Assembly (NCBI GenBank): GCA_964426185.1
Contig: CAYRPF010000060.1
Location: forward strand, 1-21,231
From: an uncultured archaeon
GTDB taxonomy: Archaea; Asgardarchaeota; Lokiarchaeia; Sigyniarchaeales; Promethearchaeaceae
Length of the DNA: 21,231 nucleotides
Direction: 5' to 3'
Shown: piece by piece, positions 2,912 to 14,505 of the stretch
Layout of the letters: each line of letters begins with the position of its first letter
How positions within the stretch are numbered: position 1 is the first letter of the stretch
Made by a program: the position numbers and the translations under genes
Notes under the pieces: model-generated
Databases searched by the model: none
What the model was told of the DNA's origin: nothing
What the model saw: the letters and a program-made list of their open reading frames with translations, nothing else

Positions 2912-3736
2912 CTACCCCCCTTTCAAAAAGATTAAAATTGAAGCCCTTACAGCTACAAATATTACTCCTAGTGCAATAATTAGATAGAACCCCTTCCAGA
3001 ATCCTGACACATCATCAAAATTTACAATATAGCCTATGATCAGTAAACCTAACATGGTTAAACTCACCATAGCATTAAGTTGACTTAATTGTTGACCGGC
3101 TTTTGACAAGGGTTGCTGAAAATGAGATTCCACATAATCATCAAATTTCCAAAAATCAACTACAATTAAAAATGGCATATTCCCCAACCAATCCTTTAGG
3201 ATAGAATATGATGCTGCAAAGAAGAAGAAATCGGCACTTTGTGCATAGGCCACGGTGCTCCATTCTTCAAAATTATCGATATTATATTTACTTTCAAAGG
3301 TAGGCAAAATGGTTGAAAAATCCTCCGCCAACCACTGCATTGTGATTATTTTTTCGCTGAAAATCCAATCTACTTCTGCTACTGGATCGTTTAATTTGAA
3401 TAGGAAAAACTCTTCCAAATCTTGATATGGTTCACTGAAGTGGATGGAATTAGCCATTAAACGAATAATTGCTTCTGTAGTGTTGAAGTATCCGTTAGTG
3501 GTGCTGGCATAACAATCAAAATCTAATGCTACATATTCCATATTTACGCGCGATGATTTTTCTGTGATTTCGATAAGATATTGGCGATTTAATTCGGCTT
3601 GCTCGATTCGATTCTCATAATTGCTGATATAATTTGATAAAAAATTCCCATAGGAATATTCAATAACCGAAACCAGAATAAGAAGCACCCCCAAAGCAAA
3701 CACGGCTGATTGATAACGTCTTTCTTTTTTTACCAT
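2912..3736 (-). CDS. Hypothetical membrane protein (3 TM); paralog of 2004..2906
   Basis: 274-aa ORF with the same topology; 5 bp from the downstream paralog; SD-like GAAGGTG upstream. Confidence 0.8.
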   Translation of the reverse strand: MVKKERRYQSAVFALGVLLILVSVIEYSYGNFLSNYISNYENRIEQAELNRQYLIEITEKSSRVNMEYVALDFDCYASTTNGYFNTTEAIIRLMANSIHFSEPYQDLEEFFLFKLNDPVAEVDWIFSEKIITMQWLAEDFSTILPTFESKYNIDNFEEWSTVAYAQSADFFFFAASYSILKDWLGNMPFLIVVDFWKFDDYVESHFQQPLSKAGQQLSQLNAMVSLTMLGLLIIGYIVNFDDVSGFWKGFYLIIALGVIFVAVRASILIFLKGG

Positions 3737-5910: not shown

Positions 5911-6957
5911 ATGAATGGATCGGTAAATGGAGGCAAAATTCCTCCGAATGGAGTAGAAATTCCAATTATTCAACAAATGTTTAATACTTGTGGTCTTGCA
6001 TCAATCTTAATGCTGAGTCATGATCCTTCCCGCTCGGAAATTCACCAAAATTTGATGAAACTCTTGGAAATCATTCAACCTTTAATAAAAGATGAATGTC
6101 AGAAAATGTTAAATTCATTATGTTTGCAATATGCGGTTCAATATCTTCTTTTAAAAATCCAACATCAAGAGGCGCGCAATTTTCACTTTTTACATAATTA
6201 CCTACACGGGAAATATGGTTATACGTTCGATGATCAAGAAACCGTGCTGTCCTATATGATGAAAACCAAAATGCAACAGTTTTTGGAGACTCAAGATTTT
6301 CTATTATTCGACAGTTATAGGCTTTTTCTTGAACATCACGGGCTTATTACTCCCCATTTATTGCGAAATGAAATGTTGACGATGAAATCCGATTTAGAAT
6401 TAAAATTTCTAATGGAACCTCTGGGATTTTCATTTGAATCCCATGAAACAGGCGATGGAACTGGTGCATTATATATTCCTGTAAAAAAGGTGAGAAACCG
6501 AAAAGAAGGTTTAAAATTTATTCATAGATTGAAGAAATTCGCAAATCAACCAAATAAACGAGTATTATATGGTTTTGCTAATCATTGGGTGGCAGTCTCT
6601 TATATTTCTGAGGTGGATATTGATAATCCTTTGATTTATTATGTCGATCCTATGACTTCTTCAGTAAAACAAGCTGGAGTGGAATTTTTAGATGAATCGC
6701 ACAGGTTTTACGTTTTTACCCGAAATAGGATTAATTATTCTAAATTATGGAAAAATATTTTAGAGATTTCGAAGGAAACGGTAAAGATTGAAAGAAAATT
6801 GCAAGAAACTCATTCTGTAGATAAAGTTCTTGCCGCACGCAGCGAAAAAAATTCAAAAGATGCTCTATTTTCTATTTTAAATCAAGAAAGTTCCAAAAAT
6901 CAAAATCATGAAGATGATTGGGATGTTGAAATCGATTTTGAATTTGAGGATAAATAA
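5911..6957 (+). CDS. Putative papain-fold (C39-like) cysteine peptidase, paralog A
   Basis: IPIIQQMFNTCGLASILM (Gln/Cys), LYGFANHWVAV (His) and IYYVDP (Asp) occur in C39-like order. No signal peptide. Acidic C-terminal tail. Confidence 0.7.
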   Translation: MNGSVNGGKIPPNGVEIPIIQQMFNTCGLASILMLSHDPSRSEIHQNLMKLLEIIQPLIKDECQKMLNSLCLQYAVQYLLLKIQHQEARNFHFLHNYLHGKYGYTFDDQETVLSYMMKTKMQQFLETQDFLLFDSYRLFLEHHGLITPHLLRNEMLTMKSDLELKFLMEPLGFSFESHETGDGTGALYIPVKKVRNRKEGLKFIHRLKKFANQPNKRVLYGFANHWVAVSYISEVDIDNPLIYYVDPMTSSVKQAGVEFLDESHRFYVFTRNRINYSKLWKNILEISKETVKIERKLQETHSVDKVLAARSEKNSKDALFSILNQESSKNQNHEDDWDVEIDFEFEDK

Positions 6958-6998: not shown

Positions 6999-8252
6999 GT
7001 GGATCCATCGAATCAAACTTCTTCTCAAGCTACTGTTAGAGATCTTCCATTATATGGCCAGCATTCAAATGCATGCGGGTTGGCCTCCTTATTGATGTTG
7101 CTAGATATTCCTCATAATCCCGAAATCGGAAGATTTTTAGATACGGTTTGGAATCATATAAAACCCTTGTATTCTCAACCAGTAGTAAAAAAAAAGGAAT
7201 ACCAATGGGCCATTGCTTTACAATATATATTGTTAAAAATTTTGGGGTATGCCGATAAAGAGGATTTATATGAATTTTTCAACCAAAGGTTAGAATTTAT
7301 GTATGAAGATCAACGCATCATGAATAAATTCAACCAAGAACAGTATTACAATGAATTATTAAAGAGAAAGAAGTATCTTGAAGCTTATACCTATTTACAT
7401 TATACAGAAGATCACGATTATGTTCTCCCTTTTATCTTGTTTAAAAACTTGCACACTATGAAAACGGATCTTGAATTGAAGATTTTAGCTGAAGTTTTCA
7501 ATTATACGTTCATATATCAAGATGCTGAAGATTATACAGGGGCATTATACTTTACTAATCAAGAATTGGGGCGGGAAATTTCACAATCGGCGCGGGTGAA
7601 ATGGAATCGATTGGAAAAATTCTCGAGACAACCGGATGTTATCATTCTTTACGGACAACAGCACCATTGGTTAGCGGTCCGCGGTGTATACAAACTTCAA
7701 GCTAAAGATAATATTCCAGAAGAAGTCATGGAAGTTTTGCAAGATAATGGAAACAAATTTAAAAAAACAAGCACAATTTCCGACATTTCAGAAATTTTCA
7801 GCACTTCACCTAATTCAAATTCATCCGATTCAAATTTATCCGATTCAAGTTCATCCGATTCAAATTCATCGAAATCAAGTTCTAGAACTCGTAATGGCAA
7901 AGATAAATCCATCTTAGCCGAAATCAGCGCTATTTTTGATGATGAATTTAACACATGGCATCCCCGTCGCCTAATTGTCGATATGAATGATCCTGCTACA
8001 GTGTCTCAAGTGCAATTTTCTTATAAAAGTTTGAACGAATCTGATCGATTTTATATATTTCGAAAACGCTCCGAAAAGGAATATTCAGCTTTTAAATTGC
8101 TTTTAAAATATTTGAAAGATGATTGTTTAGCAGAACAAGTTCGTTGGAATGATTTTTTAGATAAACGTGCTGAATCTGCTAAAAATGCCACAAATAGTAA
8201 AGCACCGAATTCAGAAAATAAAAAAGAAGAATCAAAAAATAATAAAGAATAA
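6999..8252 (+). CDS. Putative papain-fold (C39-like) cysteine peptidase, paralog B, with Ser-rich insertion
   Basis: GTG start. LPLYGQHSNACGLASLLM, LYGQQHHWLAV and VDMNDP. Shares QYxLLKI, TMKxDLELK, TGALY and ESxRFYxF with paralog A. Confidence 0.7.
   Translation: MDPSNQTSSQATVRDLPLYGQHSNACGLASLLMLLDIPHNPEIGRFLDTVWNHIKPLYSQPVVKKKEYQWAIALQYILLKILGYADKEDLYEFFNQRLEFMYEDQRIMNKFNQEQYYNELLKRKKYLEAYTYLHYTEDHDYVLPFILFKNLHTMKTDLELKILAEVFNYTFIYQDAEDYTGALYFTNQELGREISQSARVKWNRLEKFSRQPDVIILYGQQHHWLAVRGVYKLQAKDNIPEEVMEVLQDNGNKFKKTSTISDISEIFSTSPNSNSSDSNLSDSSSSDSNSSKSSSRTRNGKDKSILAEISAIFDDEFNTWHPRRLIVDMNDPATVSQVQFSYKSLNESDRFYIFRKRSEKEYSAFKLLLKYLKDDCLAEQVRWNDFLDKRAESAKNATNSKAPNSENKKEESKNNKE
7806..7880 (+). 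repeat. 15-bp coding tandem repeat x5 encoding SPNSN-SSDSN-LSDSS-SSDSN-SSKSS
   Basis: Units at 7806, 7821, 7836, 7851 and 7866 with consensus TCATCCGATTCAART. Confidence 0.9.
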
Positions 8253-8253
8253 A

Positions 8254-9462
8254 TCAATTCTTATCTTCATAAATTTTGCCTTCCAACTCGAAACCATCGT
8301 GAGATCCACAATGGGGGCAACCTTTTTCCATTAATTCCTCAATCGTGTGAATTTGAGCGTTTTTGCCAATAAAAATGGTCTTCTTACAAGATTTACAAAC
8401 ATAATTTCTGCAGGTCGGAGTAATCTCCCCCGTATAAATCGGCGTTTCCCATGTTTTATCAGATGACACCCTAATTAATGTTTCCTCACTCTTTGAAAAA
8501 GTGCGTTTGGTTGTAATTAATCGATAGAGTTGGGTGATATTTCCTAGAATTTGTGCTCCTTCATAATAATTGAATCGTGGATAAATTTCCACAATAGCCA
8601 GTCCCATTTGGGTGAATAATTCTTGCATCTTCCACATTTCTTCAGGACTACGATGGGCAAATGATAAGTAAATTTCCGTTCCTGGAAAAGGAACCAATAA
8701 ATCAATAGCTCGTGAAAGTACCAGCTGTAACGCTGAAAAAGAATAAGGTGGATCAACCATGATGGTGTTAAAGTAATTTTTATATTCAATCGGAGCGGGA
8801 GTGCGATAATCCCAGTGATGTGTAATGAATTCTGAAGATTTCCATTTTGAATTCTCTTGAATATTAGATAATAACCTATCATCAATATCAAATACCACAA
8901 TTTGCTTAGGAATAAGATGTGGTTCTTCTGGAAAAAATCCACGATACAGCTCGGCAACTGCCATCGATGTATAATCATCGTCACCGAGGAAACCTATGGA
9001 TTTTCCCTCTAATGCGCCGTTTTTGTATAAAAGTAGTGCACGTTGAAGAGAAGTCTCAGCATCAGCATAAGCTTGATCCAATTGTGTGTTAACTTTAGGT
9101 CGTTGTTCAAAAATTTGGTTTAAATAATCGAGTAGATCCTCCCAACGGGGTGATATCCAGATTGGTAAACTATCGCATTCGTCGCATTCGCTAATTCCAA
9201 ATCCATAGAATTGCAATTCTTGCTCAATAAACTTCATTCCCTTTTCAGTGTACAAGATTCCTTCAGGAATACGGTCAAAAACTTCTTTTTCAATTAAGAA
9301 ATTGACAACTTTAGATAAGATTGGGATGGGGATTTTAGTTTGATAGGATAAATCTTGAAGTGAAATATGCCCAGCACGGTAAATTTCCCTTAAAATTGTG
9401 CGATGACCTTCAATTCCTTCCTTTATAGGTATTTTTTCTTGTAATTGAAATAGAAATCTCAT
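8254..9462 (-). CDS. bpsA: Branched-chain polyamine synthase (N4-bis(aminopropyl)spermidine synthase, DUF43) with N-terminal wHTH-like region and C-terminal Zn ribbon
   Basis: RP...LDQAY, LEGKSIGFLGDDDYTS, VFDIDDRL, DPPYS and FNYYEGA motifs; internal CDEC; C-terminal CKSC...CPHC. Confidence 0.85.
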   Translation of the reverse strand: MRFLFQLQEKIPIKEGIEGHRTILREIYRAGHISLQDLSYQTKIPIPILSKVVNFLIEKEVFDRIPEGILYTEKGMKFIEQELQFYGFGISECDECDSLPIWISPRWEDLLDYLNQIFEQRPKVNTQLDQAYADAETSLQRALLLYKNGALEGKSIGFLGDDDYTSMAVAELYRGFFPEEPHLIPKQIVVFDIDDRLLSNIQENSKWKSSEFITHHWDYRTPAPIEYKNYFNTIMVDPPYSFSALQLVLSRAIDLLVPFPGTEIYLSFAHRSPEEMWKMQELFTQMGLAIVEIYPRFNYYEGAQILGNITQLYRLITTKRTFSKSEETLIRVSSDKTWETPIYTGEITPTCRNYVCKSCKKTIFIGKNAQIHTIEELMEKGCPHCGSHDGFELEGKIYEDKN

Positions 9463-9549: not shown

Positions 9550-9906
9550 TTAAACTGGATTAAATACTTTAAGCCTGGAACTGCTGGAAATTCGTTTGAT
9601 TATTCCTTTAGCTTCTAAATCCAATAGAAATTTCTTCATAGTCGAAACGCGTACATCATATTTCAAGGCTAATTCATTTGCGGTGATTGCCTTCATCTTA
9701 ACGATTTCTTTTCGCAATTTCTTTTCTAAAGCAAGAGGGAGATATGGATCACGTTGAATAGTCTCTAAAGTTGCAACTTTTCCGTATTTTTTAGCCATTT
9801 TTCGAACTTGGGATTCAACTTGGACTTTATTAATCTTATCATCATCAATAACTAAATCTTCGGATTCTTCTGTTTCTTCTTCCGAGATATTTTTTTTCTT
9901 AGCCAT
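9550..9906 (-). CDS. rps25e: Small-subunit ribosomal protein eS25 (S25e)
   Basis: Winged-helix core KEIVKMKAITANELALKYDVRVSTMKKFLLDLEAKGIIKRI...VFNP. The start was moved from 9960 to ATG 9906 (MAKKK), giving 118 aa. Confidence 0.88.
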   Translation of the reverse strand: MAKKKNISEEETEESEDLVIDDDKINKVQVESQVRKMAKKYGKVATLETIQRDPYLPLALEKKLRKEIVKMKAITANELALKYDVRVSTMKKFLLDLEAKGIIKRISSSSRLKVFNPV

Positions 9907-10128: not shown

Positions 10129-10782
10129 ATGGGAAAAAATCGACAAGAACGAAAAAAAAAAGTATATGAATTTTTTATTAAATACCAACGCCCTGAAGAA
10201 TTCGCTAAAGATCCCCTAAAATATTACAATGCTGATAGGGTCAAAGAATATGCAGAATCAAAAGCTTTAATGCGAATTCAAGAGGGAATTACTAAAAGAT
10301 GCGTGGAACTGGTACAAGCTGTCCCTCCATCGTTGTTTCTTGATCTTGGTGCTGGATGTGGTTTTTCTTCTTTATATTTAAAAATCAAAGGATTTCGAAC
10401 CGTTGGTATGGATATCAATCGAATTTTTCTTTCTTATTATTCACTTTTCGAAACTAATCCTATTCAAGGGGATTTACGAGAATTCACATGGCGTCCCAAC
10501 TCAGTTGACTTTATTATCTCAATTTCCGCCGTTCAGTGGTTATTGGCAGAAGATGATGAATTATTACGTAAAAGATATCTATATCGGCTGTCACATTTTT
10601 GTGCTTCTGCTTTAAAACCTCAGGGAAAATTAGTCTTTCAATTTTTCCCTAAATCTAATGAAGCTATGATGGAATTAGGTCATACTTTTTTGGAAACTAA
10701 TGCCTTTGAAGGAAATTTTGTTATTGATAACCCCGATAATCCTAAAAAAAGGCGTATATTTTTGTTACTCACCCGTAAATAA
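10129..10782 (+). CDS. bud23: Bud23/WBSCR22-like class I SAM-dependent rRNA m7G methyltransferase, copy 1
   Basis: RPEE...YYN...Y...IQ..IT.RC.EL, LDLGAGCGFS, ISISAVQWL, QFFP and GNFVIDNPDNPKKRRIFLLL match the remembered Bud23 motifs RPE, ISISAIQWL, QFYP and GGLVVDxP..KK.YLVL. Confidence 0.82.
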   Translation: MGKNRQERKKKVYEFFIKYQRPEEFAKDPLKYYNADRVKEYAESKALMRIQEGITKRCVELVQAVPPSLFLDLGAGCGFSSLYLKIKGFRTVGMDINRIFLSYYSLFETNPIQGDLREFTWRPNSVDFIISISAVQWLLAEDDELLRKRYLYRLSHFCASALKPQGKLVFQFFPKSNEAMMELGHTFLETNAFEGNFVIDNPDNPKKRRIFLLLTRK

Positions 10783-10807
10783 CGATTCAGAAGAGAACCC
10801 GAAAAAA

Positions 10808-11614
10808 ATGCCAAAAAAAAAGGTTTCTTACAAAAATCCTAAAAAGAAAAACCAAAAAAAAAACTTGTATAAGCATAAATCATTACCCCGCTCACATTCA
10901 GAAACTAAAAAGAAAGGATGGGGTAATCGTCCCTCTATTGATGAATATTTCGGGCTAGAAGCCGAATTATATGCCAGATCGAATTGGATGAAACGAAACC
11001 AGCAAAAAACTGCAAGATATGCTGTTGAATTATTGAAATCTAACCAGTTTTTTCAAAAAAATTCCTTCAATTTAGATGTTAAGGATGAAATTCCAAATGG
11101 GTCTGATTCTTCCGTAATTGGTAAAAATATTCAATCAAAAAATCCAGTGGAATATCCTTGTATCAGTTTAGATTTGGGATGTGGTACGGGTTATTCCAGT
11201 CATATTTTGGCAGAAAACTTTGCTCGGGTTTTAGGTGTGGATTTTTCCCGCGACATGCTCACTTTTACTTCTCTTAATCATCCAAATACTTCTATCCATT
11301 TTATTCAAGCCGATTTAAGGGCATTACCATTTCGTGAACATCTATTCTCTGTGGCTATCTCCATCTCTGCCTTCAATTTCGTTTCAGAGGGAGCACGTGA
11401 AAAATCCACTGTGAAAAAACAAATAAGAAAAGCTTTTTCTGATCTCCGTTGGTGTTTGCAGAATTATGGCAAAGTTGTGATCGAGTTTTATCCAACTCCT
11501 CTGGAAGAAATGTTCTTCATGCAAGTATTAAAGGAATTAAACTTTCAAGGCGGGCTTCTCCGCAACGATCCAGACACGCGGAAAGAAAAAAAATATCTTG
11601 TTCTTCAAAAATGA
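10808..11614 (+). CDS. Bud23/WBSCR22-like methyltransferase, divergent copy 2 with Lys-rich N-terminal extension
   Basis: LDLGCGTGYS, GVDFSRDML, LPFR, ISISAFNF, EFYP and FQGGLLRNDPDTRKEKKYLVL. ATG 10808 (MPKKK) is preferred to 10700, which would overlap copy 1 by 83 nt. Confidence 0.75.
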   Translation: MPKKKVSYKNPKKKNQKKNLYKHKSLPRSHSETKKKGWGNRPSIDEYFGLEAELYARSNWMKRNQQKTARYAVELLKSNQFFQKNSFNLDVKDEIPNGSDSSVIGKNIQSKNPVEYPCISLDLGCGTGYSSHILAENFARVLGVDFSRDMLTFTSLNHPNTSIHFIQADLRALPFREHLFSVAISISAFNFVSEGAREKSTVKKQIRKAFSDLRWCLQNYGKVVIEFYPTPLEEMFFMQVLKELNFQGGLLRNDPDTRKEKKYLVLQK

Positions 11615-11743
11615 TTATTTTTTCTTGATCAAATATGATCACATTTAAATTAGCTGTGGAATATGTCTCTTAAAAAACCATAAAATTTTTTGAAGGTTAT
11701 GCAAAAATCGCAAATTTTTTTTATTGCGTTGCATTTCCAATCT

Positions 11744-11913: not shown

Positions 11914-12219
11914 ATGCAAAGAGCTCGTATTCGATTAAGTTCACCTGATTTAGAAGCTTTACAAGATGTTATTAAAGAAATTAACCGTGTAGTTGTAAAA
12001 ACTGGAGTAAAACAATATGGTCCCGTCCCATTACCTACCAAAAAGTTGACCATTCCGACTCGGAGAACACCATGTGGTCAAGGAACCAGCACGTGGGAAA
12101 CTTGGGAACTTAGGATTCATAAACGTTTGATCGATATCAATGCCGATGAGCGTTCAATGATATTGATCATGAAAATTATCTTTCCGGAAAGCGTCTTGGT
12201 AGAAATTGAGTTAATTTAA
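11914..12219 (+). CDS. rps10: Small-subunit ribosomal protein uS10 (archaeal S10 / eukaryotic S20 type)
   Basis: ARIRLSS, GPVPLPTKKLTIPTRRTPCGQGTSTWETWELRIHKRLIDI; 101 aa. Confidence 0.97.
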   Translation: MQRARIRLSSPDLEALQDVIKEINRVVVKTGVKQYGPVPLPTKKLTIPTRRTPCGQGTSTWETWELRIHKRLIDINADERSMILIMKIIFPESVLVEIELI

Positions 12220-13233: not shown

Positions 13234-14505
13234 TCAAGATTTTTTTTGGAATAATACAATCCTGTTTGAATTTGTCCCCCTTTTATTGTTTGAAATCCCC
13301 CATATGTTTGATGTTTTGGTAAAAACTTGCTGATTTATCAATATAGCAATTGGAATAAAGCCTGCTTTACATCCTATGGGAAGTATTAATTCATCTAATG
13401 AAGTGGTTCCTCGATTAACTTCTCCCACTTCAAATGCTACCCATCCATTTGGCTTTACTTTGTGATGAAATTCATTAAAGCATTCTGCCATAAAATTCTG
13501 CCACTCTCTGATATTACTGGTACACATAATTTTCTGGTCAATTTCATCTATATTTAAAGAATTAAACCAGCCCCTCAACCAATTATCTTGGGAATACTGC
13601 ACCACGTTTAAGAATGGTGGTGATGTAACGATTAGTTGAATGCTATCATCTTTTATTTCGGGTGTATATCTTGCATCTTTGGATAAAAACAGTCCATTCT
13701 TTCCATTTTTTCTCAGATTCTCTTTCTGAATGGGGGATAAATTTCTCATCAATGATTTGGATTTTTTCAATATTCGGTGAATAATTGGTCTATATTCAGG
13801 AACTTGACTCCTTTTTTCATTAATCTTCCGCTGTCGTTCTGCTGAAACTGCTTGGTTAGGAGGTAATGTATATACAGAAAAAAAACCGGTAGAATGCCCT
13901 GTTAATCTGTTAGTTGCCACCATTCGGATCCATTGATCGATTTCGTCTTCTTCGCCTAATTGATGGCGCTGCAGTAAATAATTACGAAGTGAAACAATTT
14001 CTGCTTCTGTTTTAGGGTGATAAAACATGGAAAGATCAATTTCTGCCCGTTGGGAATAATTTATGGAAAGATTTTCCAATCTGTCCTTAATATCAGAAAG
14101 AGTAGGAATAAAAAATCGGGGTTTACAGAGAATTTTACTTAAAGGATTTACATCGTTTTGAATTATTTGCCGATTGAGCAAGCCCGCTTCAATTACTGTG
14201 GTTCCCCTTCCGCTGAAAGGATCATAAACAATATCTCCTTCTGTTGTGAATAATTCTATAAAAAATCGGGGTAGTTGAGCCTTAAAACATGCTCTATATG
14301 AAATTTCATGGAGTGAATGACCTTGTCGCTGCTTAGCAGTCCAAAATTCATTGATATATTTTGGCACCTTCACAGAATCTAACTGGAAGAATTTTACTTG
14401 AGTTTGTGTTTCTTCTGTATTATTTTGGCTCGATTTGAGATTTTTTAAAGAGTCTAAAGTAAATTCTTGTAAAAAACGATGTAAATTCTTTGGGCTGTCA
14501 ATCAT
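13234..14505 (-). CDS. Site-specific DNA methyltransferase (amino-MTase, probably N4-cytosine; motif I precedes motif IV)
   Basis: SAM-binding VYDPFSGRGTT and catalytic IVTSPPF, separated by a region of about 190 aa. Confidence 0.85.
   Translation of the reverse strand: MIDSPKNLHRFLQEFTLDSLKNLKSSQNNTEETQTQVKFFQLDSVKVPKYINEFWTAKQRQGHSLHEISYRACFKAQLPRFFIELFTTEGDIVYDPFSGRGTTVIEAGLLNRQIIQNDVNPLSKILCKPRFFIPTLSDIKDRLENLSINYSQRAEIDLSMFYHPKTEAEIVSLRNYLLQRHQLGEEDEIDQWIRMVATNRLTGHSTGFFSVYTLPPNQAVSAERQRKINEKRSQVPEYRPIIHRILKKSKSLMRNLSPIQKENLRKNGKNGLFLSKDARYTPEIKDDSIQLIVTSPPFLNVVQYSQDNWLRGWFNSLNIDEIDQKIMCTSNIREWQNFMAECFNEFHHKVKPNGWVAFEVGEVNRGTTSLDELILPIGCKAGFIPIAILINQQVFTKTSNIWGISNNKRGTNSNRIVLFQKKS

Follow-up and report, generated by a model that had tools for sequence, protein, structure and literature searches.

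The 21,231-nucleotide window analysed here, a contig of an uncultured Asgard archaeon from the same genus as Harpocratesius repetitus, carries two adjacent genes that represent two old, long-diverged subfamilies (types A and B) of the Bud23 methyltransferase family. Bud23/BUD23-WBSCR22, together with Trm112/TRMT112, is the 18S rRNA guanine-1575/1639 N7-methyltransferase. Judged from their sequences, copy 1 (type A) probably makes Bud23's mark and copy 2 (type B) a different one. In its full form, the reading that we prefer has about an even chance of being right: type A would write m7G at the 16S G1575-equivalent with Trm112, and type B would be a second active enzyme with another target in the same assembly step.

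Coordinates of the gene pair, its neighbors, and the Trm112 gene (window positions unless a contig is named)
Feature	Position	Strand	Remarks
Copy 1, type A archaeal Bud23-family methyltransferase	10129..10782	+	217 aa
Spacer between copy 1 and copy 2	10783..10807	+	25 bp
Copy 2, type B archaeal Bud23-family methyltransferase	10808..11614	+	268 aa
Ribosomal protein eS25	9550..9906	-	Head-to-head with copy 1
Ribosomal protein uS10	11914..12219	+	Downstream of copy 2
Branched-chain polyamine synthase BpsA-like gene	8254..9462	-	Downstream of eS25; conserved neighbor in the window's family
Trm112	Contig C8:14773-15408 (L063:2274-2909)	-	211 aa; located by motif search; Pfam 35.7 bits versus a cut-off of 22

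The locus is arranged as the preliminary description had it, i.e., as two co-oriented neighbors whose coordinates leave a short gap. Copy 2 starts at the ATG immediately past this gap, and the same protein is present in the database (P0027). A 304-aa ORF opening at 10700 was discarded as copy 2; it shares positions with copy 1 and probably reflects nothing more than the ORF finder's choice of the first start. In a public contig spanning 10627-10822, the copy 1 stop and the copy 2 start are identical, with zero differences. A sequencing error at the intergenic stop or at codon 173 of copy 1 was rejected because public contigs agree at both sites. The two proteins share 31% identity over 155 aa. 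Their previously noted motifs were located at R21-E24 (RPEE) and I130-L138 (ISISAVQWL) in copy 1 and at I184-F191 (ISISAFNF) in copy 2. The Lys-rich N terminus of copy 2 has 14 Lys among residues 1-40, and the insertion before motif I, first put at about 30 aa, is 36 aa long relative to copy 1 by alignment. Neither protein extends beyond the final core strand; PF12589, the domain of the eukaryotic C-terminal tail, was detected in neither but was detected in the eukaryotic control P0107. Scans of the locus for sigma-70 promoters and terminators stayed at chance level, and such models do not suit archaea. The closest named genomes are those of H. repetitus (76%) and Promethearchaeum syntrophicum MK-D1 (55%).

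The likeness of both copies to Bud23 is far above chance. A PDB sequence search placed Bud23/BUD23 at the top for both (E = 1.8e-22 for copy 1 and 8.3e-18 for copy 2); the best non-Bud23 match of copy 2 had an E value of 1.2e-8, and copy 1 had none at E ≤ 0.001. When the AlphaFold models (mean pLDDT 91.5 and 87.5) were used for fold searches, Bud23/BUD23 chains took all of the top eight places for either copy, with a lead over the next fold of about six orders of magnitude for copy 1 and about four for copy 2, and with TM scores by target of up to 0.90 and 0.89, respectively. The class I core is common to both copies and the Saccharomyces cerevisiae and human proteins (PDB 4QTU, 6G4W, and 7WTW), with identities in structural alignments of 27-30% (copy 1) and 24-28% (copy 2). 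Bud23-specific features also recur in the archaeal copies: the N-terminal RP(E) segment, the Y22 and Q32 equivalents, SISA-QW, QFYP, and the C-terminal hairpin. It is hardly credible that the pair arose by recent duplication and is redundant, or that the two are generic class I methyltransferases whose Bud23-like motifs are due to chance. Such a reading would suit the Pfam and NCBIfam matches of both copies, which are generic alone (Methyltransf_11/25), but it conflicts with the fold ranking, headed by Bud23. The copies score 35.5 and 40.6 bits against a BioC cut-off of 184.95 bits, and UbiE-type models give about 35 bits against cut-offs of 158-216. Thus, the assignment to Bud23 rather than to generic Methyltransf_11/25 or BioC-like enzymes holds.

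Weaker fold matches of the copies (E of about 1e-10) include the Haloferax volcanii Hvo_0019-Trm112 (PDB 6F5Z) and A. fulgidus Trm11-Trm112 (PDB 6ZXW) complexes, which contain Trm112-dependent class I enzymes of the archaeal Trm112-methyltransferase network that belong to other families and have other substrates. RsmG, the bacterial 16S m7G527 methyltransferase, likewise places m7G in small-subunit rRNA (PMC5372719), but its site differs, and it is absent among the listed sequence and fold matches of the copies. Unlike Bud23, the archaeal proteins have no basic C-terminal WBS_methylT tail (PF12589), form two ancient paralogues rather than one, and include a type, B, with a different pocket; their activity is predicted. 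In eukaryotic Bud23, this tail binds helix 18 and keeps it immature in pre-40S particles (PMC9723619), and the yeast Bud23 crystal construct is also without it (PMC5372719). Since the tail is absent, neither archaeal copy would be expected to keep helix 18 in its immature state in the manner of eukaryotic Bud23.

A profile search over 300 Asgard genomes gave a bimodal outcome, with E values either below 1e-40 or above 1e-22, which also argues against chance resemblance. The strong matches (E below 1e-40) were found throughout the window's family (8/8) and in its sister family f2 (89/92), in f29 (1/1), f30 (2/2), and f19 (1/1), and in three of four Odinarchaeia genomes. The other 192 Asgard genomes, which probably include Heimdallarchaeia, returned generic matches or none, and no Bud23-family member was found among them. 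Family f30, from the same class as the window but another order, is perhaps Helarchaeales. The second copy in f2 is the orthologue of copy 2, and both types occur across the window's order, most genomes of which have both. The pair is adjacent in both cultured Lokiarchaeia, MK-D1 and L. ossiferum (NEF87_000158 and NEF87_000157). Single copies with a Q-W pocket occur in Iainarchaeota, f30, and Odinarchaeia. Exactly one family match was present in 15 of 121 Iainarchaeota genomes, and the two inspected are type A. Type B without type A occurs in G025, a genome that is 91% complete. Outside Asgard archaea, the family is also found in Aenigmarchaeota and Undinarchaeales, and in a search of cluster representatives, eukaryotic Bud23 proteins were interspersed with archaeal matches. 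One type A protein (P0071; L062:2782-3930) is joined to a second, unrelated methyltransferase-like domain.

The phylogenies indicate that the split between the two types is old. Type B forms a supported clade in both trees (99; 100/99) that holds G025, Undinarchaeales, and the N-terminal half of the fusion protein P0066, and the Lokiarchaeia type A clade is supported too (97/98). A tree forcing the Lokiarchaeia A and B sequences together was rejected (p-AU = 0.0014), which rules out a duplication within Lokiarchaeia. With type B having non-Asgard members, the recent-duplication or generic-methyltransferase reading is refuted by the profile search, the trees, the AU test, and the folds. The Undinarchaeales A copy clusters with other DPANN sequences, not with Lokiarchaeia; therefore, the Undinarchaeales pair is not a recent transfer from Lokiarchaeia.

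Eukaryotic Bud23 proteins make up one clade (100/99) beside the archaeal groups. Its placement is model dependent: the quick tree puts it close to type A, the mixture-model tree close to type B, Odin-type, and f30 sequences, and neither a grouping of eukaryotes with Lokiarchaeia type A (p = 0.29) nor one with f30 (p = 0.31) was rejected. Rooting with generic methyltransferases was unreliable, as one outgroup row fell inside the ingroup. The initial suggestion of an archaeal precursor of the eukaryotic step can be upheld at the family level only; the family is patchy, it occurs also in DPANN archaea, and the sister of the eukaryotic clade shifts with the tree model. The quick tree makes the single-copy Bud23-family gene of f30 (L066:5271-5873, L076, and L077) the sister of eukaryotic Bud23 (SH-aLRT 88); the mixture-model tree does not.

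For the residue comparisons, yeast numbering was taken from the PDB-search alignment, and counts refer to 50 type A and 59 type B rows. The SAM site (yeast D53, G55-G57-G59, and D77) is intact in copy 1 (D72, G74/G76/G78, and D95) and copy 2 (D122, G124/126/128, and D145), and its residues are conserved in at least 90% of the rows. Copy 1 also has D115, and copy 2 has GCGTG, M150, and D169. Within type B, D122 is kept in 98% of the rows, and G126, G128, M150, and an acidic residue (D or E) at D145 are kept in 100%. Letoquart et al. in 2014 reportedly found the guanine pocket of yeast Bud23 to be lined by I31, S118, W122, and Y159; the pocket comparison made here also took in Q121 and Q157. Copy 1 has a Bud23-like pocket (I50, Q51, S133, Q136, W137, and Q171). 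S133, Q136, W137, and Q171 (yeast S118, Q121, W122, and Q157) are invariant in type A (100% of the 50 rows), as they are in eukaryotic Bud23, and the I31 and Y159 equivalents are kept in 86% and 98% of these rows, respectively. Active-site mutants validated the Bud23 binding model (PMC5372719). Among the points against our preferred reading are that F173 of copy 1 occupies the position of yeast Y159, in this genome only, and that sites next to SAM (yeast S79 and M82 equivalents) have undergone drift in Lokiarchaeia type A.

Copy 2 misses the Bud23 guanine pocket, with N64, N190, F191, and E226 replacing I31, Q121, W122, and Q157, and keeps S187 and Y228. The replacements are themselves conserved across the 59 type B rows: N190 in 98%, F191 in 100%, E226 in 95%, N64 in 88%, and W60 (for R27) in 92%; the Y22 and Q32 equivalents are retained. 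Copy 2 thus represents a sister subfamily and is no Bud23 equivalent. Fixation of new pocket residues along with preservation of the SAM site resembles the outcome of selection for a new site rather than of decay. This conserved, different pocket fits one of the two options offered initially, two enzymes with different targets. The other option, a catalytic subunit with an RNA-binding partner, loses ground, as the SAM motifs of copy 2 are intact and neither its Lys-rich start nor its long insert is a subfamily feature. Most type B proteins have 202-230 aa, an insert of about 10 aa, and no long Lys-rich start. The 36-aa insert of copy 2 was modelled at low confidence, and both the insert and the Lys-rich N terminus are local features. 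The latter, considered as a conserved RNA-binding part, was dismissed because it is local to this genus.

A related proposal is that copy 1 methylates the G1575-equivalent and copy 2 is a SAM-binding, noncatalytic assembly factor, a role reminiscent of yeast and human Bud23, which matter more through being present than through being active. We consider this quite improbable. Catalytically dead Bud23 does rescue the yeast bud23 deletion (PMC7758049), and type B has lost the Q-W pocket and diverges faster than type A (53% versus 76% identity to the H. repetitus orthologue). However, the type B pocket is fixed at new residues in 88-100% of the 59 rows, its SAM site is more canonical than that of type A, and it, too, has no tail, the part responsible for the structural role on helix 18 (PMC9723619).

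The preliminary description had seen no Trm112 gene, which is correct for the window but not for the genome, where Trm112 is encoded on another contig (see the table). This Trm112 has a very long central insert, and the whole-genome family search missed its gene; the crenarchaeal form, of 130-140 aa, is shorter (PMC5372719). The sole whole-genome PF03966 match (L001) was rejected as Trm112, being a zinc-ribbon protein that by eye is RpoM/TFS-like. Yeast Bud23 R107 and D112, presumably Trm112 interface residues, correspond to R122 and D127 in copy 1 and to R176 and S181 in copy 2. Since no 16S gene is present in this assembly, the 16S rRNAs of relatives were examined. The G1575-equivalent motif GGAAUC-CCUAGUAA is present in the same genus and in MK-D1, as well as in Odinarchaeia. 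Like the Bud23 system, then, the archaeal one combines an encoded Trm112 with the target G motif in relatives' 16S rRNA. This motif occurs equally in G012, an Asgard genome where the Bud23-family gene was not found, and the target G is therefore nondiscriminating. According to earlier work that does not mention Lokiarchaeota, neither a Bud23 orthologue nor m7G at the G1575-equivalent is known in archaea (PMC6144793, PMC5372719). The 2018 paper among these, the H. volcanii study, in which Asgard archaea are unmentioned, states that m7G at this position was not found in archaeal 16S rRNA (PMC6144793).

The gene order in the window's family places the A-B tandem between the divergent eS25 gene and uS10. 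In f2, the two types have become separated within the cluster: type A is head-to-head with eS25 in 27/27 loci, and type B has a radical SAM gene directly downstream in 14/14 loci and runs onward to uS10 in 9 of these 14. In the single-contig f2 genomes G311 and G313, A and B lie far apart. The Undinarchaeales tandem is reversed, with B followed directly by A; a metagenome scan for further Undinarchaeales-type loci recovered the same organism alone. In Odinarchaeia, the lone family gene lies head-to-head with uS7 in 3/3 genomes, aIF5A neighbors the family gene in G309, and P0066, a B-A fusion with a Lys-rich linker, lies beside RIO1. The occurrence, in several lineages, of neighbors with a part in the small-subunit head or in translation (eS25, uS10, uS7, RIO1, and aIF5A) is counted for our preferred reading, with the proviso that kin genomes are nonindependent and the neighborhood evidence amounts to about four lineage-level observations. 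The f2 radical SAM gene between type B and uS10 (e.g., L053:3200-4345), which is unassigned, encodes an N-terminal cysteine motif; a gene of this type was not found in the window's genome (tblastn, E = 1e-10).

Ribosomal neighbors could also mark a mere housekeeping cluster, with one or both proteins methylating tRNA, a ribosomal protein, or a small molecule. The family is patchy, with members found in 15/121 Iainarchaeota and 0/192 other Asgard genomes searched, many DPANN and f30 loci are without a ribosomal neighbor, and Trm112 has a wider variety of partners in archaea than in eukaryotes (PMC6144793). The radical SAM gene next to type B in f2 could point to another pathway. Against this, type A retains all of the pocket positions at which eukaryotic Bud23 is invariant, and ribosomal neighbors recur in separate lineages. 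A substrate other than 16S rRNA is credible mainly for type B, and as a whole this explanation strikes us as distinctly unlikely.

In a further alternative, which we hold to be doubtful, A and B would work on the pre-30S head as a single heteromeric module, probably including Trm112, with one subunit positioning or activating the other; lineages with both types would use them as a unit. The two types are adjacent in two distant lineages in opposite orders (A-B in the window's family and B-A in Undinarchaeales), both occur in most genomes of the order, and one natural B-A fusion (P0066) exists. Copy1:copy2 structure prediction, proposed at the outset as a check, supported the heterodimer weakly (a median score of 0.48 against 0.00 for the best control, runs that share at least 48% of contacts, and partner pLDDT of at least 70), but the controls were unrelated proteins, and packing through the likeness of two similar folds is possible. 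The mark used was reached by 58/80 solved complexes and 2/110 mismatched pairs; among those at the mark with a score of 0.60 or under, there were only 7 solved complexes and both mismatches. The fusion, moreover, comes from a single gene call on a 5.6-kb metagenome contig and could reflect the loss of a stop codon; no further fusions were found among 8000 candidates. An obligate heterodimer is weakened by the Q-W-pocket singles of Iainarchaeota, f30, and Odinarchaeia, by the occurrence of B alone in G025, and by the unlinked genes of f2.

Our preferred reading instead envisages two separate active SAM-dependent methyltransferases of the archaeal Bud23 branch acting on the immature small-subunit head. 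Copy 1, bound and stabilised by the genome's Trm112, would take the 16S G1575-equivalent into its pocket and methylate N7. Copy 2 would bind SAM and methylate a different atom or nucleotide, which most likely also lies on the pre-30S head; its different, strongly conserved pocket suggests such a separate target. Involvement in the same assembly step, presumably with co-expression, would explain why A and B have been kept together and beside head-protein genes.

If type A works as predicted, archaea possessed, in the form of a tail-less enzyme, a step of 40S head maturation regarded as eukaryotic, and the helix-18 assembly role came later. Type B predicts a further, new methyl mark. These predictions are testable now, as the pair is adjacent in the cultured MK-D1 and L. 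ossiferum. More speculatively, and with little likelihood in our view, Asgard archaea and Undinarchaeales may share an A-B module, either a two-subunit enzyme or a two-step writer, that acts on the small-subunit head and adds a second, novel rRNA methylation near the P-site guanine; eukaryotes would have retained one of the two copies and gained the helix-18 tail. In a 2021 ortholog survey (PMC8481954 supplement), BUD23 was assigned to the last eukaryotic common ancestor with the strictest filter, and looser filters traced it back to LUCA. A literature search covering few subscription journals found no description of these genes. The novelty is tempered by JGI automatic annotation, which already names some members 18S rRNA (guanine1575-N7)-methyltransferase, and by the profile search, which did not recover the family from most of the other Asgard genomes.

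Other features of the window deserve mention. The BpsA-like gene encodes a C-terminal four-cysteine motif and fits a warm habitat; the best-matching runs are hydrothermal vent metagenomes. Beyond it, two tandem paralogues (5911-6957 and 6999-8252; 31% identical, with no Pfam match) are kept near eS25 in several Lokiarchaeia, and their N-terminal CGL and later HW motifs suggest, by eye, a cysteine-peptidase-like fold. A second tandem (2004-2906 and 2912-3736) specifies membrane proteins that are alike in build, also with no Pfam match. A stand-alone N6/N4 DNA methyltransferase-like gene lies at 13234-14505, with no restriction enzyme recognised nearby. Finally, a dispersed repeat of about 55 bp with the core TGATCA-N4/5-TGATCA (11610-11670) overlaps the copy 2 stop codon. 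It has 22 matches in the genome at 84-100% identity, 0 of them inside a long ORF and 8 just 3' of a same-strand ORF, and may represent a miniature mobile element or serve as a binding site for a protein.
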